Shown here: in pieces, positions 3,588 to 37,547 of the stretch
Layout: each line of letters opens with the position of its first letter
Position numbering within the stretch: the stretch's first letter is position 1
The notes under the pieces: model-generated
Databases searched by the model: none
What the model saw: only the letters and a program-made list of their open reading frames with translations
Told to the model about the DNA's origin: nothing
Position numbers and translations under genes: made by a program
Source: an uncultured delta proteobacterium
Lineage (GTDB): Bacteria; Myxococcota; Myxococcia; Myxococcales; Anaeromyxobacteraceae
Length of the DNA: 64,000 nt
Assembly: GCA_963766715.1 (NCBI GenBank)
Contig: CAVYBH010000009.1
Span: 36,080 to 100,079 of the forward strand
Direction: 5' to 3'

Positions 3588-3766
3588 TATACCACGCTCA
3601 CCCACACGCTCACGCCGGGCTGGGAGAAGCAGCGGTCCAGCTCCGCCTCGACGTCGAGATCGGCGGGGAGCACCGCTTCCGGGGGGCGCGGCGCCTCGCG
3701 GTGGCGCCGGTCGAACTCCTGGAGGTGCCGGACCACCCGCTGCCAGTCGCGCTCGCCGTCGGTCAT
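3588..3766 (-). CDS. Small hypothetical protein (probably frameshifted; 3' end uncertain)
   Basis: ATG at 3766 (MTDGERDWQRVVRHLQEFDRRH...) preceded by TTGACC-16-TACGCT promoter-like sequence at 3773-3800. Confidence 0.35.

Positions 3767-7907: not shown

Positions 7908-7932
<25 letters not shown>
7160..7932 (+). CDS. Class I SAM-dependent methyltransferase (RsmJ/SAM_MT-like); start uncertain, N-terminal frameshift
   Basis: [15 protein letters not shown] motif and VVVFDPMF. Confidence 0.75.
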
Positions 7933-10271
<2,339 letters not shown>

Positions 10272-10418
10272 TCTCCCCGTCGACCTCCGAGAAGATGGCA
10301 CGGCGACCTCGACCTTCGTACCACCGAGGGGCCCGCGGCACAGGTTCCACACCCACCCGGAACGCCGGAAAACGGTCGTTCCTTGTACCCTCGGAGGGGT
10401 CGGGCTAGAACCGCGGCC

Positions 10419-12111
10419 ATGTCCAGGTTCCAGGAGATTGCGGCCCGGCTCCGCGACGCCGAGGTGGGACGCGGAACGCGGATCCCCACCCCGTTCGGTC
10501 CCCGCCTGCTCCACTACGCCGACCTGACCGCCACCGGCCGGCACCTGGACCTGGTCGAGCGCTGGCTGGACGCCGTCCGGCCGCTCTACGCCAACACCCA
10601 CACCGCGGTGGCCACCACCGGCCGGGTGATGAACGGCCTGCGGGAGGAGGCCCGGGCGCAGGTGGCCCGCTCGGTCCACGCCGGCCCCGAGGACGTGGTG
10701 CTCTTCACCGGAAGTGGAGCCACCGCGGCGGTCAACAAGCTGGTGGGGCTGCTGGGGCTCCGGCTGCCCGAGCCGCTCGAGCGGGAGTACGCCCTCTCCT
10801 CCCACGTCCCGCCCGGCCGCCGGCCGGTGATCCTGGTCGGCCCCTACGAGCACCACTCCAACGTGCTGCCCTGGATGGAGTCGATCGCCGACGTCCGCGA
10901 GGTGGCCCTCGACTCGCGCGGGGGAATCGACCTCGCCGACCTGCGCCGCCAGGCGCGCGAGGCGCGCGGACGCCCGCTCGTCGCCGGCGCCTTCTCGGCG
11001 GCCTCCAACGTGGACGGCCTGCTCACCGACGTCGCCGCCGTGGCCCGGGTCCTCCACGAGGAGGGGGCGCTCGTCTTCGTGGACTACGCGGCGGCGGGCC
11101 CCTACGTGCCCATCGACATGCACCCCGCCGACCCGGCGGCCCGGATCGACGCCCTCTTCGTCTCCACCCACAAGTTCCTGGGCGGCCCGGAGGGCTCGGG
11201 CGTGCTCGTGGCCCACCGCGACCTCTTCCGATCCCGCACCCCGGAGCGCCCCGGCGGCGGGACGGTCGACTTCGTCTCCGGGTGCCGGCCCGACCAGGTG
11301 GACTACGTCCGCTCGCTGGCCGAGCGGGAGGAGGGCGGGACCCCCGGCATCCTGGGCGACCTGCGGGCCGGCGTCGCCTTCGCCCTCAAGGACCACGTCG
11401 GCGCCCGCGAGATCCGCGACCACGACCTGGCGCTCGCCCGGACGGCCGTGCGCGCGCCTCTCCGCCCACCCCCGGATCCGCGTCCACGGCCCGCTCGACC
11501 TGCCGCGGCTGCCCATCCTCTCCTTCAACGTCGAGGGGCTCCACCACGACCTCGTCTCGGCGCTGCTCGACCACCTCTTCGGCATCCAGAACCGGGCCGG
11601 GTGCTCCTGCGCCGGCCCGTACGGCCACCGGCTGCTGGGCATCGAGGGCGAGCGGTCGGAGCGCTACCGCCGCCTCATCGCCGAGGGGCTGACCGGCGCC
11701 AAGCCCGGCTGGGTGCGGGTGTCGCTCCCCTGGTACGCCTCGCCCGGGGACGTCGAGTTCACGCTGCGGGCCGTCGAGTTCGTGGCCTCGCGGGGAGAGG
11801 CCTTCGTGCCCCTCTACCGGCTGGACTGGCGCGACGGGGTCTGGCGCCACCGGGACCGGGAGGTCGCCCACCCTTCCCCGTTCCGGCTCGCCGCCGACGA
11901 GATCCTGGCGGGTCCCCCGCCCGCGCCGGCGCCGCCCTCCGAGGCCGAGCGCGAGGCCGAGCGGGCCTCCTACCTCGCCGAGGCGGAGCGCCTGGCCGGC
12001 GAGCTCACGGCGCGCTGGCAGCGCGAGCCGCCGGCGTGGAATCGCCCCACGGGGCGACCCGACGTCGACGAGCTGGTCTGGTTCCGGTACGTCGAGACCG
12101 TGGGGCTGTAG
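10419..12111 (+). CDS. Class V PLP aminotransferase / cysteine desulfurase-like protein (frameshift near 11450)
   Basis: [21 protein letters not shown] (PLP lysine), [17 protein letters not shown]. Confidence 0.88.
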
Positions 12112-24279: not shown

Positions 24280-24672
24280 CTAGCGCTTCGAGAACTGGAA
24301 GCGCTTGCGGGCGCCGGGCTGGCCGTACTTCTTGCGCTCGACCGCGCGGGCGTCGCGGGTCAGGAAGCCGGCCTTCTTCAGGGCCGGACGCCACTCGGGG
24401 TTGAGGACCGAGAGGGCGCGCGAGATGCCGTGGCGGATGGCGCCGGCCTGGCCGGACAGCCCTCCCCCGTTGGCGTTCACGAACACGTCCATCTTGCCCA
24501 TCTGGTCGACGAGCTTGAGCGGCTCGACCAGGATCATCTTGGAGGTCTCGCGGCCGAAGTACTGGTCGAGGGACTTTCCGTTGACGGTGATCGTCCCGGT
24601 GCCCGGGACGAGCCGGACGCGCGCGACGGATTCCTTGCGGCGACCGGTGGTGATCTTCTGCGTCGTGGCCAT
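24280..24672 (-). CDS. rpsI: 30S ribosomal protein S9
   Basis: [11 protein letters not shown]...[14 protein letters not shown]...ERKKYG...QFSKR. Confidence 0.98.
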
Positions 24673-24682
24673 CTCGATTCCT

Positions 24683-25130
24683 CTAGGCGGAGATCTTCAG
24701 GGCTTCGGGCTTCTGCGCGGCGTGCGGATGCGCAGGCGCCGGCGTAGACCTTCAGCTTGGTCATCATCGCGCGCCCGAGGGCGTTGCGAGGGAGCATGCG
24801 CTTCACGGCGAAGATGAGGATGTCCTCAGGGTGCCGGGCGCGGACCTTCTCGGCGGGCGTCAGCTTGGCGCCGCCGGGGTGCATGGTGTGGGAGAAGTAG
24901 AGCTTCTCCTGCTCCTTCTTGCCGGTGAAGCGGGCCTTCTCGGCGTTGATCACGACGACGAAGTCCCCGGTGTCGAGGGAGGGCGTGTACGACGCCTTGT
25001 GCTTGCCCTTCAGGAGGGTCGCGATGCGGGTCGCGGCGCGGCCGACCGTCAGGTCCGTCGCGTCGACGATCCACCACTTTCGCGAGCGGAGGGCTTCCGC
25101 CTGCGTGGTGCTGTGAGTTGCCTTGTTCAT
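24683..25130 (-). CDS. rplM: 50S ribosomal protein L13 (frameshift near 24735)
   Basis: [42 protein letters not shown]. Confidence 0.96.
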
Positions 25131-25166
25131 GGAAAACCTGGTGTTTCGAGCGATTTGGAAGGGGCG

Positions 25167-25195
25167 TTCCTAGCGGAACCCCCCCGGATTGTCAA
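25167..25195 (-). promoter_or_regulatory. Sigma70-like promoter of rplM-rpsI
   Basis: TTGACA-N17-TAGGAA. Confidence 0.6.
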
Positions 25196-25250
25196 GGAAG
25201 GACGAGCCGGCCGGTGATTGGCCGGGGGATCGTCCGGCACCCCGCCAGGG

Positions 25251-25946
25251 TTACGGCAGGTGATAGCCCAGGAAGAGCTGCGTGGTGAAGGCGAATGCGG
25301 TGGCGGTCCCGCCGGGGATTCCGCCCCCGGGGGAGGAGTAGGCGTCGATCGCCGCGCCGAAGCGGGTGTTGAGGCCGACCGAGACGTCCGGCGTGGGGTG
25401 GTACTCGACGTACGGACCGGCCGCCGGGCCGAAGACGAAGCGCGGCGAGAGCGGACCGCTCACGAGGAGGGTCATGTTGAAGTCGAGCCCGACGCCGACC
25501 TCGAGGTCCTTCTGGATCGGGAAGCCCATGACCACGCCCACCGGGAACTGGAAGCCGAACATCGCCGAGCTCGTCGTGTAGAGCTTGAGGCCCGGATCGA
25601 CGTGGAAGAGGAGCTTGAAGTCCTTGCTCTGCAGGAGCTGGAAGCGGAACGGCGCGTAGAACGACAGGCCGAACTGGCTGTCGGTCGAGCCCTCGAAGCC
25701 GTAGAGCAGGCCGAGGCGCAGGCTCACGTCGGACTTCGGGGTGAGGCCGAAGGTGTAGCCGAAGGTGGTGCTGGGCCAGCCGGCCTGGACGTCGAGCACG
25801 GGGCGGCCGGGGGCGACCGTCTCGGTGCCCACGACGCTCCAGCCGGTGAGGCCGGCGTGCTCGGCCTGCGCGGAGGCGGCAACGGGAGAGAGGGCGGCGG
25901 TGACCAGAATGGCGGCGGCGAGCGCGATGCGGCTGCGGGTCGTCAT
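25251..25946 (-). CDS. Secreted protein, probable outer-membrane beta-barrel
   Basis: Signal peptide ending ASA-Q, alternating aromatic beta-strand pattern, C-terminal LFLGYHL; GGAGG SD. Confidence 0.7.
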   Translation of the reverse strand: MTTRSRIALAAAILVTAALSPVAASAQAEHAGLTGWSVVGTETVAPGRPVLDVQAGWPSTTFGYTFGLTPKSDVSLRLGLLYGFEGSTDSQFGLSFYAPFRFQLLQSKDFKLLFHVDPGLKLYTTSSAMFGFQFPVGVVMGFPIQKDLEVGVGLDFNMTLLVSGPLSPRFVFGPAAGPYVEYHPTPDVSVGLNTRFGAAIDAYSSPGGGIPGGTATAFAFTTQLFLGYHLP

Positions 25947-26100
25947 GTTTCTGCCTCCTTCGAGGGGGGAATGCACGGGGCGCCGAAGTTCGGTGGGCCG
26001 CCCCGCGTGCAGGCTCCCTTTAGCGGTCAATGGCTCGGGGCGTCAAGCGGCGATGCACCTTCGGTGCCTTCGGTCCGCACCTTCGGTGCCGGACGTGCGG

Positions 26101-28246
26101 TCATCGTCCGTTTCCGCCCAGACGGGCGCGAAGCGCCTGCAGTACCTCGTTCGACCGGACGGCGGCGGCCTCGACCGAGGCGCCGCTCTCCGGGTCGTGC
26201 CGGACGTGGGCTCCGGCAGGGAAGTCCTCCAGGAAGCGGCTGACCGTCCTGGGCTCCAATCGGCCGCGCCTCGTCCGCGCGCTCGCCCTCGTGACCCAGA
26301 GCGACTCCCGGGCTCGAGTGATTCCGACGTAGGCGAGCCGACGCTCCTCCTCCAGGTCCCGCGCCTCGCCCTGGATGCCGGAGACCGGCAGGAGGTCCTC
26401 CTCGAAGCCGATCAGGAAGACGACCGGGAACTCGAGCCCCTTCGCGGCATGGAGCGTCATGAGGGTGACCCCCTCCGCGTCATCCGGCTCCTCGTCGCGC
26501 GAGTCGAGCGCCAGGCGCTGGAGGAACGACCGGAGCGTCGCCTTCGGGTCGCGGCGCTCGTGCGACTCCAGGGACCGCAGCACCGCGTCGACCGAGTCGA
26601 CCTTCCTGGCGCCGGCCTCGGCCGAGAGAACGCTCTGGCGAACCCAGTCCCGTAGGCCGAGTTCCTCGACCAGGGCGCGGCCACCCTCCGCCAATCGTCC
26701 GGCACCGAACCTGGCCCGACACCGTTCGATGGTCGCGGCAAACTCGGCCATCTTTTCCGGCGCCCCGCGTGGGATGTCCGGCACGGCGGACGCGGACTTC
26801 AGCCCCGAGGCCAGGGTCCTTTCATTCCGCGCCGCCCAGTCGGCGAGGCGGGCCATGGCAACGTCGCCGATTCCTCGTGGCGGGACGTTGGCGACCCGCG
26901 CCAGCGACACGTCGTCGTCGGGGAACGCGCAGATCTTGAGCCACGCGAGGACGTCGCGAACCTCGGCTCGGTCGAAGAAGGCGGGGCCGCCTTTGACTCG
27001 GTGACCGATTCCGAGCTCGCGGAGCGCTTCCTCGAGATGCTGGCTCTGTGCGTTCAGGCGGTACAGGACGGCAAAATCGGAGGCGGCCCTTCCCTCGGCC
27101 ATTCCGGTCCGGATCTCCCCCGCGACGAACCTCGCCTCCTCCTCCTCGTCCTGGAGGACCGCGACCCGGACGGGGTCGCCAGGACCCGCATCGGTCCAGA
27201 GACGCTTGGGGCGCCGCTCCGCCGATCGGGCGATCACCGCGTTCGCGCACTCGAGGATCCGCCCGGTGGAACGGTAGTTCTGCTCGAGCCGGATGATGGC
27301 GGCGCCCGGGAAGTGCCGCTCGAACCGGAGGATGTTGCGAACCTCCGCGCCTCTCCAGCCGTAGATGGACTGGTCGTCGTCCCCCACCGCGCACAGGCTC
27401 CGGCCGCTCCAGCCAGGGGGCACCTGGAAACCCTTGGGCTCGGCTTCCGGCCCGGCGTCGCGGGAAGAACGTCCGGGCGAAGATCGTCCGGCACCGCGCG
27501 TCGCGCGTCCCCGTCCGGCACCCAGGTCGGCCGCACACAGGAGCTCCAGCAAGCGCAACTGGACGCGATTCGTGTCCTGGTACTCGTCCACCAGGACGTG
27601 GCGGAACCTGTCGCGGTACGTGGCCCGGAGTGCTTCGTTTTCCTCCAGGAGGGCCGTGGGGCGGACGATCAGGTCGTCAAAATCCAGCGATCGCTGTGCG
27701 CGCAACGCCTGCTCGTACCGGGGGACGATCTCGTCGGCGATGGCCTCGTAGTCTCCGGCATCATCACCTGGTCCGGTGAGGCCCTTCGCCGGGCCGAATT
27801 GGTCCGACTTCCGGCGCGAGATGATCCCGAGGAGCTGCCGGACGTCGAACCGGCGCGATTCCATCTGGACGTCGCGAAGACATCGCTTGAGCAACGTCAT
27901 CTGGTCCCCCGCGTCGCAGATGGAGAACCATGCGGGCAGACCGGCGGCCTTGTGCTCTTCCCGGAGGAACCACAGGCCGAAGCCGTGAAAGGTCGCAACG
28001 TGGACCTTGCCACCAGCGGACCCCGCGAGAGCCCTCACGCGGTCCTTCATCTCCTTGGCGGCCTTGTTGGTGAACGTGACGGCGAGGATGCCTTCCGGGC
28101 GAGATCCCCTCCTCGATGAGCCATGCGACGCGATGTGCGATGACCCGGGTCTTGCCCGAGCCGGCGCCGGCAAGGACGAGCGCGGGCCCTTCGGGAAGGA
28201 CGACTGCCTGTCGCTGGGGAGGGTTGAGTCGGGACAGGTCGAGCAC
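26101..28246 (-). CDS. UvrD/Rep/PcrA superfamily 1 helicase (frameshift near 28100)
   Basis: [56 protein letters not shown]. Confidence 0.95.
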
Positions 28247-28372
28247 GGGGGCGTGCTATTGCCATGCGGGGGCCGGAGCTTCAAGGCCTTGACTTCGCCT
28301 CGAATCTCCGCGAGGACGGTGTCCGCTTCGTCCCTGAAATGGTCGGGACGAGAGTTGATCGGGAGAAGCCCC

Positions 28373-29086
28373 ATGTTCTGGCTCGAGCCACGGCCGTCCG
28401 GCCACCACGCCCCGCAGCACGGTAGCCCGCGGATGTTCCGCGTGGAGTGGATTGAAAAGCACCTGTCGCGCGTCCAGCCGTGGCAGGTCCTCATCGTCTG
28501 GGTTCCGGTGATCGCCTACCTCATCTATCGAGGACTACAGGTGCCGGACGTCTCGATCCCCGCGTTCCTCGGCGCCCTCTTCGGCGGACTGTTCTTCTGG
28601 ACCCTGCTCGAGTACGTGCTGCACCGCTGGGTCTTTCACTTCGTCCCCAGCCCGAACTCGCAGTTCGCCCAGGACGTCCACTTCCTGATTCACGGCGTCC
28701 ATCACGACTGGCCGCACGACCCGGACCGCCTGGTCATGCCGCCGGTGATGTCCATCCTGCTGGCGATCGTCCTCGGGTTCCCGATCTTCCTCGTGCTGGG
28801 GCCGCGCTTCTTCGATCCTTTCTTCGCCGGGCTCGTGAGCGGGTACATCTGGTACGACATGACCCACTACGCGGTTCACCACGTGAAGCCGCGGACCGAG
28901 GCCGGGGCCAAGCTCCGGAAGCACCACTACCTCCACCACTTCAAGCAGCCGGGTGCGCGGTACGGCGTTTCGACGCCGTTCTGGGACGTGATCTTCCGCA
29001 CCTTGCCTCGCGCGGATGGACCGGTGCCCGCGACGGCGTCGCCGGATGGCCCCACGCGCGCTCGCCCCAGCGGTGCCGGACGATAG
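28373..29086 (+). CDS. Fatty acid hydroxylase / sterol desaturase family (FA2H/Scs7-like)
   Basis: EYVLHRWVFH, HGVHHDWP-DPDRLVMPP, YDMTHYAVHH, HHYLHHF, YGVSTPFWD. Confidence 0.9.
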   Translation: MFWLEPRPSGHHAPQHGSPRMFRVEWIEKHLSRVQPWQVLIVWVPVIAYLIYRGLQVPDVSIPAFLGALFGGLFFWTLLEYVLHRWVFHFVPSPNSQFAQDVHFLIHGVHHDWPHDPDRLVMPPVMSILLAIVLGFPIFLVLGPRFFDPFFAGLVSGYIWYDMTHYAVHHVKPRTEAGAKLRKHHYLHHFKQPGARYGVSTPFWDVIFRTLPRADGPVPATASPDGPTRARPSGAGR

Positions 29087-29093
29087 TCTGACG

Positions 29094-29128
29094 ACGACGG
29101 GCCGGCGCTCCGCGCCGGCCCGTCGTTT
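29094..29128 (+). terminator. Perfect 15-bp hairpin between hydroxylase and RAYT-like gene
   Basis: ACGACGGGCCGGCGC-TCC-GCGCCGGCCCGTCGT followed by TT. Confidence 0.6.
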
Positions 29129-29143
29129 GCTAGTCCCGGTGGG

Positions 29144-29813
29144 ATGCCCCGCGTTCCCCGGTCCAGGCTCGTAGCGCCTGGCTCCACGCACCACTGCTTC
29201 TGGCGAAGCCACAACCGCACCCAGGTCCTGGGCTCGGACGCCGCGCGCCGCGAATTCCTCCGACTTCTCGCGAAGTACAAGGACCGGCACGGCGTCGCCA
29301 TCCACAGCTACTGCCTCATGGGAACCCATCCGCACGTGGTCTGCCGCTCGAGCCTCGGCCAGCGCTCCTTCAGCGCGTTCTGGAAGGTCGTCAACCAGTG
29401 CTTCGCCCGTTGGTACAATCGGCGGACCGGGGGCCGCGGACAGGTCGTCATGGAGCGCCTCGGCTCACCCAGGGTCCAGCGCGGAGGCAGGCACGAACTG
29501 GAGGTCATGATCTACGGCGACATGAATCCGGTCAGGGCCGGCATGGTGAAGCGCCCCAGCGAGTGGCCATGGTCCAGCCACGGACACTACGCATTCGGCC
29601 GACCGGACCCCCTGGTGACGGAGTCACCGGCTTACGCTTCGCTTGGCCGGAGCCCGGGAGAGCGCCGTCTCGCCTATCTCCGGCTCTTCGCGCGCCGATT
29701 CATCGACCGGCTGCGCCGGCATCGTCGCGACCTCGTCCGCGGGCCCGTTCATTGGAACCGTCCGATGGGTCGCGTCGATGGTCGAGACCGACGTCCCGGT
29801 TCCCGACGGGTGA
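29144..29813 (+). mobile_element. REP-associated / IS200-like HUH tyrosine transposase (Y1_Tnp, RAYT-like); probable frameshift near 29741
   Basis: MPRVPR N-terminus, HxxxRxHNR, YCLMGTHPH (HUH), YxxxNPVRAGMV (catalytic Tyr), WPWSS; corrected C-terminus GPFIGTVRW...PDG-stop at 29813. Confidence 0.88.
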
Positions 29814-29816
29814 GGC

Positions 29817-30809
29817 CTAGACGAGGCCGCGCTCCCGATACCATCGGGCCGCCTCTCTCATCCCCTCGACGAACGAGACCCGGGGCGTCCATCCAAGCTC
29901 TCGCCGGGCCTTCGCGGAGGAACAGGTCCACGCCGGCTCCCGAATCTCCATCATCTTGTCCAGGGAGAGGATGGCCGCCTTGCCCGTCACGCGCGATGCA
30001 GCCGTGGCCGCGCCGGCCGCGATCCAGCTCACGAATTCGGGCACGGCCAGGACGGCCCCGCGCTTCCCGAGAGCGCCCAGGGCGCCGCGCCCCAGCCCTT
30101 CCCAGGTGTATTCGACCCCGTCGTCCGCGAAGTAGACCCCTGCCGTCCCGGCCTCGTCGACCCGGGCGCCTCGCTCCGCGGCTGCGATGATGAGCTCGAC
30201 GAGATCGTTCACGTGGATGATGCTGTAGCGCTTGTCCCCCATCCCCGACTTCAGGATGACCCCCGTCCTCGCAAGCTGGAAGAGCGAGGGGAGGAACTCC
30301 TTGTCCCTGGGGCCATAGACGATCGGGGGCCGGACGATCGAGGCGTGGAGGGTGGCGGCGAACGAGCGAACCACCTGCTCCGCCTGGAGCTTGCTCTGCC
30401 CGTAGGCGCTCACCGGTGCCGGACGATCGGTCTCGGTGCGCGGCCTGGAAGGCGTTGACGGGCCCGCCGCTGCCAGGGACGAGACAAGGACGAATCTCGG
30501 CCGCCCGGACCGCGCAGCGGCCTCGGCGAGAGCCCTCGTCCCCTCCGCGTTGACCGCGAAGAGCTCGTCCCGGGTCACGGCCTTCACCAGTCCGGCCAGG
30601 TGGACCACCGCGTCGACGTCCGGCACCGCGTCGACCACCGTCTCCGGCTGGCTCACGTCGCCCCGGACGAGCTCCGCCCCCATCGCCTTCAATTCGCCTG
30701 CTCGGGCCGGGTCGCGGACGAGCGCGCGGACGAAATCACCGCGACCGAGCAACCGCTCGGCGAGCGTCGTCCCGATGAAGCCGGTGGCCCCGGTGATGAG
30801 CCAGCGCAC
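29817..30809 (-). CDS. NAD-dependent epimerase/dehydratase (extended SDR), candidate ceramide/3-ketosphinganine reductase
   Basis: TGATGFIG, VHLAG, VSSLAA, YGQSK, RPPIVYGP. Confidence 0.85.
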   Translation of the reverse strand: MRWLITGATGFIGTTLAERLLGRGDFVRALVRDPARAGELKAMGAELVRGDVSQPETVVDAVPDVDAVVHLAGLVKAVTRDELFAVNAEGTRALAEAAARSGRPRFVLVSSLAAAGPSTPSRPRTETDRPAPVSAYGQSKLQAEQVVRSFAATLHASIVRPPIVYGPRDKEFLPSLFQLARTGVILKSGMGDKRYSIIHVNDLVELIIAAAERGARVDEAGTAGVYFADDGVEYTWEGLGRGALGALGKRGAVLAVPEFVSWIAAGAATAASRVTGKAAILSLDKMMEIREPAWTCSSAKARRELGWTPRVSFVEGMREAARWYRERGLV

Positions 30810-30812
30810 GGC

Positions 30813-31998
30813 CTATTCGACCGGCATTTCGTAGAGGCGGTAGACCTTGGAGCGTCGAGCTCCGGCCGCCTCGATGGCCCTGTTGATGAGCGTGTTGTCC
30901 TCGAGCGTCCAGCTCACCTCGCCGCCCTCGTAGCCCGCCTGGTCGGCGCGCCGGATCGTCTCGACGATGAGCACCGCATCGAGGCCTCGCCGGCGCCAGC
31001 CTTCCTTGATTCCGAGCGCCATGAGCCGGACCTTCGTGATCCGCTTCTGGAACCAGAGGAGCTTTGCCAGTCCGACAGGCACACCGAAGGTCGTGAGGCG
31101 GCCACCGACCTTCTTGAAGGCCTGGTTGATGTCCGGCACCGTGAGGGAAAACGCGATCGGCTCCCCGTGGGCCTCGGCGACCAGCGCCAGCTCCGGCACC
31201 ACCAGCTGCTTCAGGTCCTTGGCCAGCTTGTCGAACTCGGCGTCCGTCATCGGGACGAACCCCCAGTTCTTTTCCCAGGCCGAGTTGTAGACCGTCTTGA
31301 TCCGCGCGACCTCGGCGTCGAAGTTCGCGACGTCGAGCGGCCGGACCGTGATTCCCTCGTGCGCCCGGATTCTTGTCGGCCACGCGGATGAAGCGTTCCG
31401 GCGCCGGCACCTTCGCCGACCGCTCGAACGCGAAGAGGTCCTTCGCCTTCCGGAACCCGCAGGACTCCAGCAATTCCGCGTAGTAGGGCGGGTTGTACGG
31501 CATCATCACGTACGGCGACGAATCGAACCCGTCCACGAGCAACCCGCACTCCTGGTTGGTGGAGAGGCTCATGGGCCCGATGACCTGCTGGAGCCCGCGC
31601 CACCGGGCCCAGTTCCGCGCCGCAGCGACGAGCGACGCCGCGACGCCCGGGTCGTCGATCGACTCGAAGAGCCCGAAGTAGCCGACCTTGCAACCGTGGA
31701 ACGCGTTGTAGTTCCGGTCCTCGACGGCGGCGATCCGCCCGACGATCTTGCCCTCCCGGCGGGCCAGGAAGAGGGCCACCTCGGCGTGACGGAAGAACGG
31801 ATTGTGCGCCGGGTCCAGGAACTCGTGCCGCTCCATGATGAGCGGGGGAACCCAGAACGGGTCGTCCTGGTACAGCTCGAACGGGAGCCGGACGAAGCGG
31901 TCCTTCTCGAGCCCCGACGAGACCAAGGTGACTTCGACGTCCTTGGCGGGCTGGGCGACCTCGGTGATGTTCGGAACGACGACAGGTCTGGTGGTCAT
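30813..31998 (-). CDS. GNAT-fold N-acyltransferase, candidate bacterial ceramide synthase (frameshift near 31370)
   Basis: DPFWVPPL, NPFFRHAE, GRIAA, FGLFE, MPYNPPYY, WEKNWGFVP, RRRGLDA, SWTLEDN; directly downstream of AOS-family gene. Confidence 0.8.
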
Positions 31999-32026
31999 GG
32001 CGGGGTCCTGGCGTGGGGGGGTCGCG

Positions 32027-33565
32027 TCAGGCGTCCCGCTGATTGTCGCTCGAATTCTGCTGGCGGCGGGACATGAAGTTCATGCCGGCCGACAAGAGCA
32101 TGGTGGGCAGCTGCCGGCGCTTCTCCCAGAGCTTCAGGGGCAGTTCCTTCAGCTGCTGCAGATCCTCCGGCCCCGCGTTGACGGCCTTCCAGGTGATCAT
32201 CTCGGCCGCATCCGAGAGCCTGCGCGACCAGGGCTCGCTCGTCTGGGTGAGGACGTCGAGGATCTCGAGCCGGGCGCCGCCGTCCTGCTGGCCGGTCGCG
32301 GTCGTGTCCCCGTCGTGCGACGAGTAGAAGCCCGTCACGCCGGGGCGCGCCATCTTGACCTCGACGCGGGTGTGCGGCCGCTCCTGGGGAATGAGTCCGA
32401 GCTCGCGTCCGGCCTTCTGGAACATCTCCAGGGCCCGGTCGATCTGGTCGTCGGTGTGCGTCGCCATGAAGACGGTGCGGACGAGCTCCTTCTCCACGGC
32501 CGGCTTCACCACCGGGCTCGCGAAGAGCCCGAGATCCGTCAGCTTCCGCCAGAACTTGAAGGTGAGCGCCTGGTCGCCGACGACCACCGGCACCACCGGC
32601 GAGACCGACGGCTGGGTGTCGAAGCCCATTCCGCGCAGCTCGCGGTGGACCCGCTCCGAGATGTCCCAGAGCCGCTCGCGCCGCTCGGGCTCCTGCTCGA
32701 TGATCTCGAGCGCCTTCAGGGCCGCGGCCGCCGCGGACGGGGTCATCGACGCGCTGAACACGAGGGCGCGCGCCTTGTGCTTGATCCAGTTGATGACGTC
32801 CGCCCGGCCGGCGATGACGCCGCCGATGGAGGCCAGCGACTTCGAGAACGTCGTCATGATCAGGTCGACGTCCTCGTGGACGCCGAAGTGCTCGCCGGTG
32901 CCCTTGCCGCCCGGCCCCATCACGCCGAAGCCGTGGGCCTCGTCGACCATGAGCCGCGCGCCGTACTTCCGCTTCAGCTCGACGATGGCGGGGAGGTTCG
33001 CGAGGTCCCCCTCCATGGAATAGACGCCGTCGACGACGATGAGCTTGCCTGCGTTGGGCTCGGAGTTGGAGAGGAGCCGCTCCAGGTCCTCCATGTTGTT
33101 GTGCCGGAAGCGCTTGGTCTCCCCGTAGGACGCCTGCATGCCCTCGACGAGCGAGGCGTGGACCATCCGGTCGGCGAAGATGATGTCGTGGCGCAGGACG
33201 AGCGACGAGATGGTGCCGAGGTTCGTTCCGAAGCCGGTGGAGAAGACGACCGCGGCTTCCTTCCCGAGGTACCTGGCGAGCCGGTGGTCGAGCTCGTCGT
33301 GGAGCTTCATCGTCCCGTTCAGCACCCGGGAGCCGCAGGTGGACGCGCCCCAGCGGCGGGCCGCCTCCGCGGCGGCCTCCATCACGCGCGGGTCGTTCGC
33401 AAGGCCGAGGTAGTTGTTCGAGCAAGCCATGATGAGGCGCTTGCCGTCGACGACGACCTCGGTGCCGTCCGTTTCCTCGATGACCCGGTAATAGGGGTAG
33501 TGACCTGCGATCTTGAGGACCTGGGCGTCCTTCCAGGCAGCACACTTGTCAAAAAGATCAGCCAT
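32027..33565 (-). CDS. Alpha-oxoamine synthase (serine palmitoyltransferase/BioF family) with C-terminal extension
   Basis: YPYYR, SNNYLGL, GSRVLNGT, HASL, DGVYSMEGD, DEAHG, TFSKSLASIGG. Confidence 0.9.
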   Translation of the reverse strand: MADLFDKCAAWKDAQVLKIAGHYPYYRVIEETDGTEVVVDGKRLIMACSNNYLGLANDPRVMEAAAEAARRWGASTCGSRVLNGTMKLHDELDHRLARYLGKEAAVVFSTGFGTNLGTISSLVLRHDIIFADRMVHASLVEGMQASYGETKRFRHNNMEDLERLLSNSEPNAGKLIVVDGVYSMEGDLANLPAIVELKRKYGARLMVDEAHGFGVMGPGGKGTGEHFGVHEDVDLIMTTFSKSLASIGGVIAGRADVINWIKHKARALVFSASMTPSAAAAALKALEIIEQEPERRERLWDISERVHRELRGMGFDTQPSVSPVVPVVVGDQALTFKFWRKLTDLGLFASPVVKPAVEKELVRTVFMATHTDDQIDRALEMFQKAGRELGLIPQERPHTRVEVKMARPGVTGFYSSHDGDTTATGQQDGGARLEILDVLTQTSEPWSRRLSDAAEMITWKAVNAGPEDLQQLKELPLKLWEKRRQLPTMLLSAGMNFMSRRQQNSSDNQRDA

Positions 33566-33776
33566 TTGCCCTCGTGGTCGTTCGGGAAAAATGCGGTTCC
33601 CCGGGGTTACCTACCGGCCGTGGGTGGAGGGAGTCAAGTGGCGCGGCGCGTCGTCGGACCCCCAGGGGGGGCGACCGCGCTTCCATCGGTGCCGGACGAT
33701 CGCCCCGGAGTTACATCCCGTCCCGACCGTTCCATCGCACCTCCAACCCATTCCGCAGCTGGAAAGGACCCGAACC

Positions 33777-33980
33777 TTGGCCACCTACAAGAAGATCGAA
33801 GTCGTCGGAACCTCGTCGAAGAGCGTCGCCGACGCCGTGAAGTCTGCCGTCGCGGGAGCCGGGAAGAGCGTCCGGAACATGAGCTGGTTCGAGGTGGCCG
33901 AGATCCGCGGCGCCATCAAGGGCGGCGAGGTCTCCGAGTTCCAGGTCACGGTCCGCATCGGCTTCAAGGTCGAGAGCTAG
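33777..33980 (+). CDS. Dodecin family flavin-binding protein
   Basis: YKKIEVVGTS...WFEV.EIRG...FQVTVRIGF; TTG start after AAAGGA. Confidence 0.9.
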   Translation: MATYKKIEVVGTSSKSVADAVKSAVAGAGKSVRNMSWFEVAEIRGAIKGGEVSEFQVTVRIGFKVES

Positions 33981-34028
33981 GCCCTCGACCGAGCCAACCA
34001 CCGCGTTGCGGCGCGGCGACCCGCCGGC

Positions 34029-34454
34029 TCAGATGCCGTCGAGGTCGCCGCTCGCCACCCGGGTGGCGAGGAACCGGCCCAGTTCCATGTCGGAGCGGCT
34101 GATGTGCCGCTTCAGCCACTCGGCGATCCAGTTGTTCATCCGGATCCCGACCAGGACGTTGGGCCCCTTCTCCCGGAATTCCTGCCGCATGTGCTCGTAG
34201 TCGCGGATGAACCGTTCGTGCTCGGCCTTGTGGCGCGCGTAGTCGGGGTAGGCGCTGCGGAGCATCCACCGCTCCTCGGCCCCGAAGTGCTTGACCACGT
34301 AGCCGCCCAGGAACTCCAGCAGTCGCTCGACGTCCGCCCCGTTGCCCCGGGACACGCCCTCCACGAGCCGGTCGATCCGGAGGAAGAGCTCCTGATGCTG
34401 GTGGTCGATTTCGGGGACGCCGATCGCGAGAGCGGGGGTCCACGGAATGGCCAT
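34029..34454 (-). CDS. Bacteriohemerythrin
   Basis: W...IGVPEIDHQH, HFGAEE, HKAEH, WLKRHI..SD. Confidence 0.92.
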   Translation of the reverse strand: MAIPWTPALAIGVPEIDHQHQELFLRIDRLVEGVSRGNGADVERLLEFLGGYVVKHFGAEERWMLRSAYPDYARHKAEHERFIRDYEHMRQEFREKGPNVLVGIRMNNWIAEWLKRHISRSDMELGRFLATRVASGDLDGI

Positions 34455-34533
34455 ATGCGGTGCTCCCTCCACGAGGCAATCACGCCGGTCCTCGTCGTGG
34501 CGACCGGGGTCCAGCGGGTACGCGTAAGAGGCT

Positions 34534-35688
34534 CTAGCGGCCCGATGCGCGGCGCGCAGGGGTGAATCGGGCCGTTCTTTTCGATGCGCGGGAGGAGCGG
34601 GTCAGCCGCGACGTCCGGCACCGGGCGGCACCGGCGTCGATCCCCGCCGATTCGAAGGCGGCCCTCAGGAACGCATCGTTCTCGGCCGGAGTGCCGACCG
34701 ACACCCGCAAGCAGCCCTTCAACCCGGGTAGGTGGTCCTGACGCCGGACGAGAATCCCCCGCTCGAGCAGCGACCGCCACGCGGTCTCGGCGTCCGGGGT
34801 CCGGACCAGGAAGAAGTTCGCCCGGCTCGGGTGCGCCTTCCAGGTGGGGTGGCGGGCCAGCTCGGCCATCACCCTGTCTCGCTCGGCAGCGATCCGCGCG
34901 CCGATCTCCGCCGCCCGATCAGCGGACTCGAGGACGGTCGCGAGCACCGCGGCCGTGTGCACCGGAACGTCGAACGGAGGAAGCATGGCCTGGAGCTTGG
35001 AGGCCACGTCCGGCACCGCGAGAAGAAAGCCCGCCCGCACCCCGCCGAGGCCGAAGGCCTTCGAGAACGTCCGAAGCAGCACCACGTTGGGGTTCTCGGC
35101 CGCCATCGCCCGGTGATCCGTGCCGGAGAACTGGCAATAGGCCTCGTCGATCGCGACGATCCATCCTCTTTCCCGTGCCTTGTCGGCGATCCGTCGAACG
35201 TCCGGCACCGCGAAGACGGCTCCCGTGGGCGCGTGCGGGACCGCCACGAACACCACTCCCGCCTCGCCCGTGTCCATCTCCCGCAGGAGCCCGTCCACCG
35301 GGAGGCCGAAGTCTGCGGCGAGCGGGACCGCGCGGTACGGGGTTCCGGTCAGCCGGGCCGCTCCCTCGTAGAAGGCAAACGAGGGCGCCGTATCGAGGAC
35401 ACGGCGGGCGGCCAGGGCGAGCGCCAGCACGAGGAAGTTCGACCCGGGCGCCACGACCACGCCGGTCTCGGGCCAGCCCAGCGCGCCGGCGATGAGCCCC
35501 CGGACCCCTTCGGCATGCATGTCCGGGTAGCGGTTCCACGGTTCGCGCCGCATCCGCTCCAGCGCACGATTCTTCAGATCTTCCGGGAGATCCCAGGGAC
35601 TCTCGTTCTGGTCCAGCTTGATTGCGGCTTCGACCTTCTTGTAGGGGTAGGCCGCAAGTCCGGAAAGGTGGGGTTTGAAAGCTTCCAT
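34534..35688 (-). CDS. hisC: Histidinol-phosphate aminotransferase-like PLP enzyme
   Basis: KLDQNESP, NRYPD, IDEAY, RTFSKAFGLGGVR, ANFFLV, LRVSVG. Confidence 0.85.
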   Translation of the reverse strand: MEAFKPHLSGLAAYPYKKVEAAIKLDQNESPWDLPEDLKNRALERMRREPWNRYPDMHAEGVRGLIAGALGWPETGVVVAPGSNFLVLALALAARRVLDTAPSFAFYEGAARLTGTPYRAVPLAADFGLPVDGLLREMDTGEAGVVFVAVPHAPTGAVFAVPDVRRIADKARERGWIVAIDEAYCQFSGTDHRAMAAENPNVVLLRTFSKAFGLGGVRAGFLLAVPDVASKLQAMLPPFDVPVHTAAVLATVLESADRAAEIGARIAAERDRVMAELARHPTWKAHPSRANFFLVRTPDAETAWRSLLERGILVRRQDHLPGLKGCLRVSVGTPAENDAFLRAAFESAGIDAGAARCRTSRLTRSSRASKRTARFTPARRASGR

Positions 35689-36646
35689 GTCGCGACATTA
35701 CTGCAACTTCCTGGCTGTCGCCGCGCTCGCCGCGGGGATCGCCTTTGATGCGCTCGCCTCCGGCACCGATTCAGTTTCGGCGCCCGACGTCCGGCACCGC
35801 GTCCGGCACCGGGCCCTCGCCCACGTCCGGCACCGCCATTCGCGTCGACCCTCCGCGCGCCCGCCCGGGCGACGCCCTGGTGGTCACCCTCCCTGGCGTC
35901 CCCTTCCCCGTCGCCGGCGGATTGTCCGGCACCGTCTCCGGCACCGTCTCCGGGCGCGCCCTGCGCTTCTTCCCCTCCCCCGCCGGCGCCCAGGCCATCG
36001 CCGCCCTCCCGGTCGAGCTCGCCCCCGGCACCCTGACCATCGAGGTCCGCCTCCCCGGCCGCGCCGAGCCCCTCACCGCCACCGTCGAGATCGTCGACCC
36101 GGCCTTCCCCGAGACGAAGCTCTCGGTCGAGCCCAAGTTCATCGCCCCCTCCCCCGCGCAGAAGAAGCGGATGGAGGAGGACCAGGCCGCCTTCCGCGAG
36201 GCCTTCGCCCGCCCGTTCGAGCCCCCCTCTTCACCGGCCCGTTCGGCCGCCCCCGCGACGCCGCCGTCACCGGCCGGTTCGGCGAGCGCCGGATGTTCAA
36301 CGGGAAGAAGCAGAGCCAGCACTACGGGACCGACCTCGCCGGCGCGGTCGGCGCGCCCGTCGAGGCGACCAACGACGGCCTCGTGGTCCTGGCCCGCGAC
36401 TGCTTCGCGTCCGGCAAGAGCATCGCCGTCGCGCACGGCGGCGGGCTCTTCTCGGTCTACTTCCACCTCTCCGCGATCGACGTCCGCCCCGGCGATCGCG
36501 TCCGCCGCGGCCAGGCCATCGGGAAGGTCGGCCAGACCGGGCGCGTCACCGGCCCGCACCTCCACTTCGGGGTGAAGGTCGGCGACCTCTACGTCGACCC
36601 CGACTCGGTCTACCGGCTCGCGCTGTCGCTCCCGCCTCAGCCCTGA
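35687..36646 (+). CDS. M23 family metallopeptidase (start uncertain; frameshifts near 35780-35840 and 36228)
   Basis: HYGTDL (HxxxD), YFHLS, TGPHLHF. Confidence 0.85.
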   Translation: MSRHYCNFLAVAALAAGIAFDALASGTDSVSAPDVRHRVRHRALAHVRHRHSRRPSARPPGRRPGGHPPWRPLPRRRRIVRHRLRHRLRARPALLPLPRRRPGHRRPPGRARPRHPDHRGPPPRPRRAPHRHRRDRRPGLPRDEALGRAQVHRPLPRAEEADGGGPGRLPRGLRPPVRAPLFTGPFGRPRDAAVTGRFGERRMFNGKKQSQHYGTDLAGAVGAPVEATNDGLVVLARDCFASGKSIAVAHGGGLFSVYFHLSAIDVRPGDRVRRGQAIGKVGQTGRVTGPHLHFGVKVGDLYVDPDSVYRLALSLPPQP

Positions 36647-37467
36647 AGGGGCGGCAGCCCGCCTCCGGCCCTCACCTCGGCCAGCACGTCGAGGAGCTGG
36701 CGCTGCAGCGCCGGGTTGGCGGCGCAGATGGTCCCGCCGTGGAGCATGTCGTCACCACCGGTGAAATCGGCGACGCGCCCGCCGGCCTCGGTCACGAGCA
36801 GGATCCCCGGCGCGACGTCCCACGGCTTGAGCCGCGCCTCCCAGAACCCGTCGAACCTCCCGCACGCCACGTAGGCCAGGTCGAGCGCCGCCGCCCCGAA
36901 CCGCCGCACCGCCCTCGCCCGCTTCAGGTAGGCCCGGAAGAGCCGCACCAGCGGATCGGGGTCGCGCTGGATGTCGTACGGGAAGCCCGTGCAGAGCAGC
37001 GCCCGGTGGATGTCGTCGGTCTCGGACACGGCCATCCTCCGGTCGCCGAGCCACGCCCCCTCGCCCCGGCCGGCCAGGTACAGCTCGTCCCGCAGCGGGT
37101 CGAGCGTCGCGCCGGCCGCGAGCCCGGCCCCGTCCGACACCGCGACGTTCACGGCGAAGTGCGGGACCCCGTGCGCGTAGTTGGTGGTCCCGTCGAGCGG
37201 GTCGACGAACCAGCGCAGCTCCACGCCCGCGGCGCCGCCCAGCGCGTCAATCGCCCCCGACTCCTCGGCGAGGACGGCGCTGCCGGGGAACTCCTTCGCC
37301 AGGAACGCGAGCAGGGCCTCCTCGCTGGCGCGGTCGGCGTCGGTCACCAGGTCGATGCCGCCCTTGTAGTCGATGGTCCGGCGCGTCCCCCACTTCTCGC
37401 GCAGCACGGCCCCACCCCTCCGGGCCGCCTCCGCGCACGCCTTCCGCAGCTCCCCGATGGCCGTCAC
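36637..37467 (-). CDS. Inositol monophosphatase family (SuhB-like)
   Basis: DLVTDAD, AEES, VDPLDGTTNY, GFPYD, KPWDVA; AGGAGG SD before GTG 37467. Confidence 0.92.
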   Translation of the reverse strand: MTAIGELRKACAEAARRGGAVLREKWGTRRTIDYKGGIDLVTDADRASEEALLAFLAKEFPGSAVLAEESGAIDALGGAAGVELRWFVDPLDGTTNYAHGVPHFAVNVAVSDGAGLAAGATLDPLRDELYLAGRGEGAWLGDRRMAVSETDDIHRALLCTGFPYDIQRDPDPLVRLFRAYLKRARAVRRFGAAALDLAYVACGRFDGFWEARLKPWDVAPGILLVTEAGGRVADFTGGDDMLHGGTICAANPALQRQLLDVLAEVRAGGGLPPLQG

Positions 37468-37547
37468 CGGACCTCCTCCTGGGTCGAGATCGTGAGGATA
37501 CTCGCGCCGGGCACGCATGCTAAGGTCTTCGGCCTGGGAGGAACGAG

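Follow-up and report, generated by a model that had tools for sequence, protein, structure and literature searches.

What ties a short DNA word, repeated inside housekeeping genes, to the single nuclease gene in their midst? The question arises from a 64,000-nt stretch of the genome of an uncultured delta proteobacterium of the Anaeromyxobacteraceae (here called the window; C9:36080-100079 of assembly G000, which holds 4,196,528 bases in 18 contigs). At 29144-29813, the window encodes a Y1/HUH protein resembling the REP-associated tyrosine transposases (RAYTs), the partners of repetitive extragenic palindromic (REP) sequences. Around this gene lies a zone crowded with copies of a 13-nt word, W-Y-GTCCGGCACC-G. 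Judging from comparisons of the DNA across related genomes, this word is very probably the site of the RAYT-like protein.

A first-pass annotation of the window had reported 18 exact copies of GTCCGGCACC or its complement within 25232-35933 and one more at 3724, usually extended by (A/T)(C/T) in front. Our recount agrees: the window holds 19 copies, distributed as reported, and (A/T)(C/T) precedes 16 of the 18 zone copies, while G follows 15 of them. Dinucleotide-preserving shuffles (n=100) contained a mean of 0.59 copies and a maximum of 4, compared with the 19 observed. Counted over the whole genome, the word is not evenly spread either, and the zone is its only cluster. There are 75 copies of GTCCGGCACC in the 4,196,528 bases, 57 of them outside the zone, and the zone's three bins are the only 5-kb bins with at least four. 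The 12-mer CGTCCGGCACCG occurs 28 times, 13 times in the zone and 15 times outside it; since the reversed-word control also yields 15, the word is at background level outside the zone. An unbiased scan of the genome for any 10-mer with at least six copies inside 12 kb ranked the zone's word at the top, and the comparable zones were protein repeats only, namely a multi-haem CxxCH cluster (C18) and a repeat protein (C8). Outside the window, G000:C18:873-11746 and C13:89743-93340 carry 37 and 16 copies of CTGCCACGGC, probably the TGC-CAC of CxxCH haem-binding sites in very large multi-haem cytochrome genes. We also considered and rejected a replication terminus or dif site at the zone: the cumulative GC skew of the window peaks at about 24-26 kb, but the skew is negative across the whole 100-kb contig, with no switch.

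The form of the word was established from a logo of 172 copies in 13 genomes. Position -2 is A in 127 copies and T in 32, position -1 is C in 131 and T in 41, and position +1 is G in 133, giving the full 13 nt; no conservation was seen in the logo beyond them. The word is asymmetric, and the 131 copies that start with CGTC have no stem after the CGTC for it to tag. Six motif contexts, folded as single strands, were no better than shuffles (z -0.41 to +1.16), which indicates that the word is linear and not a REP hairpin. The earlier observation that classical REP hairpins are missing here is thereby borne out.

The genes of the zone and its borders are as follows (ORF, open reading frame; aa, amino acids).

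24280-25130, minus strand: rpsI and rplM
25251-26030, minus strand: 259-aa ORF with no family match
26101-28494, minus strand: UvrD-type helicase
frame of 28007-29086, plus strand: fatty-acid hydroxylase
29144-29813, plus strand: RAYT-like gene
29817-30809, minus strand: SDR/epimerase
30813-31502, minus strand: 229-aa ORF with no family match
32027-33565, minus strand: serine-palmitoyltransferase-like gene (spt)
about 33780-33980, plus strand: dodecin
34029-34472, minus strand: hemerythrin
34534-35688, minus strand: hisC-like aminotransferase
35675-36646, plus strand: M23 peptidase
36637-37518, minus strand: inositol monophosphatase

Most copies had been placed inside coding sequences, and this holds for 15 of the 18, the three intergenic ones being at 25232, 26085 and 33688. 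The helicase contains three coding copies, the hydroxylase two, the SDR/epimerase two, the 229-aa ORF one, the hisC-like gene three and the M23 peptidase four. We verified the peptide readings given for them: the helicase has GAGR three times, the SDR/epimerase DRPAP and AVPDV, the 229-aa ORF TVPDI, and the hisC-like gene AVPDV twice and RCRT once. The VRHR reading in the M23 peptidase follows from the plus-strand frame that begins at 35675.

The gene in the middle of this zone had been annotated as 29144-29813. Its start is right and 29813 is the end of its orthologues, which measure 222 aa in the genus, but the frame in this assembly runs on to 30190. Owing to one surplus base near position 29747, the last ~21 codons are out of frame and the stop is lost. 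Contigs from three of four public runs lack this base, which places the orthologous gene end at 29813; the base itself is either an assembly error or a strain-specific frameshift. Residues H62-P63-H64, Y124, N128 and P129 are invariant in 21 homologues, and the HUH and tyrosine motifs (the latter Y124-G-D-L-N128-P129, or Y-x3-NP) align with those of 4er8, E. coli TnpA-REP, the sole solved structure matched by sequence (E 0.0079). The same structure (4er8_A) was the top Foldseek match of an AlphaFold2 model of the protein (pLDDT 80.8; E 2e-5, TM 0.70 on target), with the ISDra2 and IS608 transposases next. Within the genus, codon positions 1, 2 and 3 have identities of 0.81, 0.87 and 0.57, the pattern of a gene under purifying selection. 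With its invariant HUH and tyrosine residues, this codon-position pattern and the 4er8 fold, the enzyme looks intact.

A survey of the family recovered the RAYT-like protein in 40 of 61 genomes at E <= 1e-10. G000 has one match, as does each of 10 among the 11 further genomes of the genus that were searched; the remaining genome, which has none, is 70% complete. Other genera have one to six matches per genome, in a patchy distribution. Public data hold 1095 protein clusters of this clade at E <= 1e-5, named, where they are named, 'putative transposase' or 'REP-associated tyrosine transposase'. As for the traits of IS200/IS605 elements, the gene is single-copy here, its flanks hold no conserved hairpin and no TnpB-like match was found among the neighbouring genes. 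Each species has its own length and sequence of spacer between the hydroxylase stop and the RAYT-like start, apart from a motif copy (29072) and CGGCCCG..CTTGCT before the start codon. A perfect 15-bp hairpin with a 3-nt loop lies in it at 29094-29126 and is likely the terminator of the hydroxylase gene; being found in this genome only, in a spacer that varies between species, it was rejected as a conserved REP structure.

We then asked how the zone behaves within the genus. A 13.4-kb region is syntenic in 13 of 13 same-genus genomes, at 75-93% pairwise identity, and each of these genomes has 7-18 copies of the word around the gene. Among 11 short loci from other genera, 10 had no copy and one had a single copy. 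A MAFFT alignment of the same-genus loci resolved 44 site clusters; about half of these are confined to one to three genomes, which points to turnover of copies. In the nine same-genus loci with full 10-kb flanks, every copy falls in the range from -8.8 to +7.3 kb relative to the gene, and there is none in the last 2 kb on the right. The zone of the present genome is shorter on the left than the same-genus range, and another genome of the genus, G007, has 11 copies in genes matching 15.5-22.9 kb of the window, where the present genome has none. The copies of the window are listed below with their presence in the 13 aligned same-genus loci, or in fewer where fewer have sequence.

25232..35933: motif zone with 18 copies of W-Y-GTCCGGCACC-G
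25232..25241, plus strand: intergenic, rplM / 259-aa ORF; this genome only
26085..26094, minus strand: intergenic, 259-aa ORF / helicase; this genome only, in an indel-rich region
26697..26706, plus strand: UvrD-type helicase (FGAGRL); this genome only, by substitution at a CCCGGCGCC-like site
27486..27495, plus strand: variable helicase linker; 8/13 loci, with indels around it
27513..27522, plus strand: helicase linker, 27 nt past the 27486 copy; this genome only, in extra sequence
28540..28549, minus strand: fatty-acid hydroxylase; 2/13 loci, near-matches in the rest
29072..29081, minus strand: 63 nt 5' of the RAYT-like start codon; 10/13 loci, reversed, as is typical upstream
30415..30424, minus strand: SDR/epimerase (DRPAPV); 13/13 loci, identical over 14 nt
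30618..30627, plus strand: SDR/epimerase (DAVPDV); 11/13 loci
31131..31140, plus strand: 229-aa ORF between SDR and spt (LTVPDI); 13/13 loci
33688..33697, minus strand: intergenic, spt / dodecin; 10/13 loci, two to three tandem copies alongside in some species
34613..34622, plus strand: C-terminal tail of the hisC-like gene (ARCRTS); 7/13 loci
35008..35017, plus strand: hisC-like gene (LAVPDV); 11/11 loci with sequence there
35200..35209, plus strand: hisC-like gene (FAVPDV); 10/10 loci with sequence there
35789..35834, plus strand: M23 peptidase, N-terminal linker, with three copies (35789, 35801, 35825) at spacings of 12 and 24 nt; this genome only, within extra sequence
35924..35933, plus strand: M23 peptidase linker; 8/13 loci, extra copies alongside in several species

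The tie between word and gene extends beyond the genus. In a first set of 20 homologue loci from other genera, 17 have at least five local copies of a 10-mer with a CCGGCAC core, so that a survey of homologous RAYTs does reveal flanking enrichment, with variants specific to each lineage. The prefix changes with lineage, with GT, CT or CC ahead of CGGCACC, and the variants include ATGTCCGGCAC, CGTCCGGCACC, ACTCCGGCACC, CCTCCGGCACC and TACCCGGCACC. The complete genome G020 (5.03 Mb) has 36 copies of ACTCCGGCACC, of which 28 are located at its two RAYT copies; the reversed-word control is 4. A second search, covering 185,579 species genomes, returned 57 loci that overlap the first set, all labelled Anaeromyxobacteraceae, Anaeromyxobacter, Myxococcales or 'delta proteobacterium' metagenome-assembled genomes; the most repeated 11-mer contains CCGGCA in 34 of them.

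The typical layout in these loci consists of one tandem word array directly upstream of the gene, reversed, and another directly downstream, forward, with variable G+C-rich filler. This layout, which resembles that of the RAYT systems termed REPtrons, is seen in sister genera; the present window has one reversed copy directly upstream (29072), and its nearest downstream copy lies 600 nt beyond the end of the RAYT-like gene. We found no long terminal inverted repeats: inverted matches, made up of the word and G+C-rich filler, measure 17-38 nt with 71-88% complementarity, and none brackets the gene in this window.

Could the word instead belong to another factor or process, the RAYT-like gene having merely inserted in or beside clusters that were already there? 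Insertion sequences are reported to target REP sequences (PMC1525189, from an excerpt of that paper), and the gene is multicopy in some genomes, both of which would suit such a history. Yet no word cluster without the gene was seen in this genome or in G020, and the prefix of the word changes together with the protein lineage. The loci also have no other gene in common: when the 258 ORFs lying no more than 5 kb from the gene in the 20 loci are clustered, the RAYT is the only widely common cluster (17/20), the next reaching at most 5/20. Furthermore, orthologous outgroup loci that lack the gene contain no copies (10 loci, about 69.5 kb). We consider prior clusters very improbable.

The same outgroup loci reveal how copies arise, and aligning orthologues documents gains by both substitution and insertion. 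In conserved enzymes, copies replace codons and residues, without indels. At site 30415 of the SDR/epimerase, the genus has DRPAPV and outgroups have DECKPV, DPCRPV or DLEAPL; at 30618, DAVPDV stands against AALEGV, AALDGV or RAMEGV. Similarly, LTVPDI at 31131 in the 229-aa ORF corresponds to M(T/S)LPD(A/M/I), with CTN in place of the GTG codon. In the hisC-like gene, LAVPDV at 35008 corresponds to LGAPEL or LASPKV, and FAVPDV at 35200 to FPRTEV or FDPGDI. G007 acquired two further coding copies through 2-4 substitutions, reading VPDV again.

In linkers and intergenic DNA, on the other hand, copies are gained and lost as 12-48-nt units, with indels. G007 carries a triple copy within a 60-nt insertion and other copies inside 50-60-nt insertions, the differences between the close relatives G071 and G068 include a 24-nt and a 48-nt unit, and one contig of public run X3 has a further 24-nt unit carrying the word behind 35835. 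The helicase linker (27400-28060) and the N-terminal linker of the M23 peptidase (35730-35960) are hypervariable in length among species and public-run contigs, and they are the places where motif copies multiply in tandem; the word therefore adds in-frame length variation to both proteins.

Once present inside a gene, old copies are held by constraint on the DNA itself. We compared third-codon identity at 11 sites in five genes, leaving out the M23 peptidase, with 2000 permutations of positions within the same genes. Identity inside copies was 0.816 (390/478) versus 0.577 (sd 0.053) when permuted, and 0/2000 permutations reached the observed value. By gene, identity in motif sites and in the gene background was:

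SDR/epimerase: 0.97 in motif sites, 0.54 in the background
229-aa ORF: 1.00 in motif sites, 0.72 in the background
hisC-like gene: 0.96 in motif sites, 0.56 in the background
helicase: 0.545 in motif sites, 0.538 in the background
hydroxylase: 0.695 in motif sites, 0.583 in the background

The zone contains 18 perfect matches, eight with one mismatch (3.6 expected) and 45 with two (44 expected), so there is no tail of decaying copies.

These results also speak to the idea that the word is a by-product, be it of a recurrent peptide under protein-level selection, of base composition, or of an island from a word-rich donor. Four sites do encode (A/T)VPD(V/I), and the zone genes have somewhat lower G+C and third-position G+C than their neighbours. 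Nevertheless, the copies use both strands, are read as at least five peptides and extend to intergenic DNA; the shuffles fall far below the observed count; and third-codon positions in the motif are more conserved than permuted ones. A donor island fits poorly with a zone that is syntenic in 13 genomes and whose resident genes, such as the helicase beside rplM-rpsI, are adjacent in outgroups as well; moreover, 40 relatives searched showed no genome-wide excess of the 12-mer. We find a by-product hardly credible. The earlier contention that protein constraint cannot explain the copies is upheld, since outgroups differ in both codons and residues, and synonymous positions in the copies are unusually conserved.

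A second, independent halo was found in the relative G071, whose neighbourhood has no gene but the RAYT-like one in common with this window. The 12-mer GTGTCCGGCACC occurs 120 times in this genome, versus 1 for the control. Positions were obtained for 100 of the 120 copies, all on one 2.39-Mb contig; among these 100, 37 lie within 50 kb of the gene, 53 between -850 and -50 kb, and nine in the ~750 kb on the right-hand side of the peak, while a single copy is found over 1 Mb to the left. The domain occupied by the variant word spans ~890 kb (G071:C1:572805-1466307) and has sharp edges at 572.8 and 1466.3 kb, and the gene sits near its right edge. Replication direction was considered as a cause of the one-sided tail; skew and strand bias in twenty 20-kb samples of G071 were noisy. 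In the relatives L041 and L042, 11/19 and 19/23 of this halo's 10-mer copies lie in called genes.

How might such a halo come about? We propose that the ancestral layout, retained in sister genera, was REPtron-like, with the gene between inverted tandem word arrays. In this genus, the gene would have become fixed as a single copy under purifying selection, with the word kept only within ~16 kb around it. New copies would enter in two ways: in intergenic DNA and disordered linkers through 12-48-nt units that are inserted or duplicated, and in conserved enzymes through substitution at codons that tolerate the word (GTG CCG GAC as VPD, GGT GCC GGA as GAG, CGT CCG GCA CCG as RPAP). Copies, once present, would be kept by constraint on the DNA. 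The enzyme, made beside its gene and acting mainly in cis, may bind single-stranded copies of the word and cut and rejoin there, which would seed new units nearby and, through creation, repair or templated conversion of copies, bias the repair of near-matches towards the perfect word. The outcome would be a self-maintaining local halo. Taken as a whole (a cognate word, two modes of gain, holding at the DNA level and a cis-acting mechanism), this explanation seems to us just on the probable side. Whether the enzyme itself generates the halo appears, from the sequence patterns, evenly poised.

The main rival dispenses with any copy-making by the enzyme. Ordinary mutation and selection would build a cluster of binding sites, because a domesticated protein requires numerous sites close to its own gene, for example for assembling a local nucleoprotein domain or for tethering the nuclease; such sites would originate in random point mutations and slippage, in any place where the proteins can accommodate them, and selection would retain them. 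We regard this as rather unlikely, yet it has much in its favour. Most differences between close relatives are single-base, and sites recur in codon contexts that need few amino-acid changes, xP(D/E)V and GxG, both of which the rival fits equally well. The strong synonymous conservation without a decay tail, the zone borders that are stable in nine species, and a gene that is single-copy, syntenic and under purifying selection are also in keeping with it. It accounts less well for a clade that is patchy (40/61 family genomes), multicopy in some genomes and present as fragments at contig ends, all of which suggest a mobile rather than an essential gene. Intergenic DNA as far as ~13 kb from the gene contains unit insertions and tandem arrays that have the look of deposition, and selection for a local complex is a poor explanation of the ~890-kb spread in G071, which peaks at the gene. 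How far the zone reaches also varies in the genus, with G007 bearing copies where the present genome has none.

Accordingly, the first-pass proposal of a RAYT-associated system that writes a local motif stands in part: the motif is local and tied to the gene, while deposition or conversion by the enzyme would leave the same pattern as mutation and selection. We prefer cis-limited seeding, since the arrays and inserted units look deposited, since the density peaks at the gene on scales from 16 kb to 0.9 Mb, and since the clade elsewhere behaves as a mobile element.

Several observations weigh against seeding by the enzyme or against the generality of the word-gene tie. The halo shows no polarity of orientation (9 site clusters are forward and 10 reversed upstream of the gene, compared with 16 and 9 downstream), unlike the flanking arrays in other genera, whose polarity is clear. 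Three of the 20 homologue loci (L032, L036 and L043) lack enrichment, the gene being at a contig end in L043, as do 23 of the 57 loci, many of them short or holding only part of the gene; the most distant of the 57 (35% identity) is likewise without it. The two sets of loci overlap and come from kin, so that their counts cannot be taken as independent trials. Only the SDR/epimerase, the 229-aa ORF and hisC carry the conservation signal; there is little or none in the helicase and hydroxylase, whose sites are mostly lineage-specific. The closest pair, G071/G068 (92.5% identical), shares 15 of 23 sites versus 55% of background 9-mers, which is no clear excess of site sharing; its differences are mostly single-base, as ordinary mutation gives, with only one clustered patch. 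Contigs of four public runs show no supported joint at a motif copy, rare events being invisible in contigs; the joints that were seen fall in the hypervariable linkers and may stem from other organisms. Finally, the protein scores under both curated profile cutoffs (NCBIfam REP_Tyr_transpos, NF047646, 50.5 bits against 80; Pfam Y1_Tnp, PF01797, 22.2 bits against 23).

To place the locus among known systems, we drew on excerpts of the papers cited here. REPtrons are RAYT/TnpA-REP genes with REP/REPIN sequences, exemplified by E. coli YafM, PDB 4ER8 (PMC6006769, PMC5581495), and are placed in class 2 of the TnpA-Y1 family (Quentin et al. 2018, PMC6006769). Like them, the present system has a Y1/HUH fold with a Y-x3-NP tyrosine motif, low copy number with vertical inheritance within the genus, a gene bracketed by inverted cognate repeats in sister genera, and a repeat that co-varies with protein lineage (PMC6006769, PMC5581495, PMC8266576). 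Unlike in REPtrons, the repeat is a linear 11-13-nt word with no hairpin, confined to ~16 kb and at control level outside instead of dispersed genome-wide. Fifteen of its 18 copies are inside genes, and the intragenic copies come from substitution and are conserved at synonymous sites. In addition, the HuH triplet is H-P-H, absent from the subclass signatures in Table 1 of PMC6006769, and the curated profile cutoffs are not reached. Nor does the word resemble a REP, being no 20-40-nt imperfect palindrome, not extragenic and not dispersed in high copy.

The TIRYT proteins, or TnpA-Y1 subclass 2.1, have a median of 238 aa and are prevalent in delta-proteobacteria among others; the excerpts report no classical REP for them and describe long terminal inverted repeats with the consensus GGGG[AT][CG]A[CG] (PMC3733652, PMC6006769). 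Our 222-aa protein shares the greater length with a C-terminal extension, whereas its inverted matches comprise only the short word and filler, this being a comparison by features and not by phylogeny. Intragenic repeats are likewise on record: Rickettsia RPEs and GTAG and CGTC repeats inside ORFs (PMC3733652), as well as REPs inside tnpA-REP genes of subclass 2.4 (PMC6006769). Those cases resemble ours in having transposase-linked repeats in frame inside coding genes that are not destroyed, and the CGTC start is common to most of our copies. They differ in that whole palindromes are inserted as extra residues and scattered genome-wide, whereas the conserved copies here replace codons with no change in length and only near the enzyme gene.

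A parS site is a 16-bp palindrome read by the ParB fold. Both parS/ParB and the iterons of HUH Rep proteins resemble our locus in that many short words near the gene of their reader are tolerated in coding DNA and conserved between species, and the tandem arrays beside an HUH gene also recall Rep iterons. In contrast to parS, the word lacks symmetry, and the protein encoded beside it is a Y1 nuclease. General profile scans of the window gave no ParB-family match, the genome not having been searched for parS/parB, and the zone contains no replicon origin or partition genes.

The Y1/HUH enzyme fold, the inverted flanking repeats and the co-variation of repeat and enzyme are thus known already from REPtrons. 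What is new here is a linear 13-nt repeat that is not dispersed and is mostly intragenic, with conserved intragenic substitutions kept at synonymous sites; a word written into neighbouring housekeeping genes and kept genus-wide is not reported for known systems of this kind. The literature we found contained no description of a linear, local, intragenic RAYT word, with the proviso that supplementary tables could list clade members, and no mention of Anaeromyxobacter.

Several features of the surrounding DNA were recorded alongside. Third-position G+C of the zone genes is 0.85-0.89 (0.93 in spt) and 0.92-0.97 in most flanking genes; the G+C content of 25000-36000 is 0.675-0.705. At 28007-33565, the fatty-acid hydroxylase, SDR/epimerase, 229-aa ORF and spt are grouped together, a set that presumably resembles the bacterial ceramide/sphingolipid cluster of Caulobacter work. 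The spt product scores 501 bits against NCBIfam SerpalmtaseCFB, below the cutoff of 640. The SDR, 229-aa ORF and spt are also neighbours in five outgroup genomes; locus L052, from another genus, has the helicase, while the SDR, 229-aa ORF, spt and hisC were not found in its 9 kb. Farther out in the window, the Lon protease ORF (7908-11642) is 1244 aa as called, with a substrate-binding domain that begins only at residue 462, so either the start was called too early or the protein has a long N-terminal extension.

At this locus, constraint at the DNA level suffices to fix amino-acid changes in housekeeping genes and to freeze their synonymous sites, which matters for how conservation in coding DNA is read. 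The clade concerned is large (1095 protein clusters) and mostly labelled only 'putative transposase'. The mechanisms of REP dissemination are described as poorly understood in the excerpt of Corneloup et al. (2021, PMC8266576), and both the spread of REPs and the persistence of RAYTs are open questions, for which this clade offers a very simple case: a 13-nt linear substrate, a single-copy gene and a 222-aa protein. Gains and losses of the word form a datable local record over 13 syntenic genomes, including copies that replace codons in conserved enzymes. More speculatively, and rather improbably in our view, the nuclease may rewrite its own chromosomal neighbourhood, seeding units and converting near-matches to the exact 13-nt word in cis on single-stranded DNA, thereby overwriting housekeeping codons and keeping copies perfect over tens of millions of years. 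If true, this would be a self-maintaining sequence drive with kilobase reach, extending up to ~0.9 Mb in one relative.

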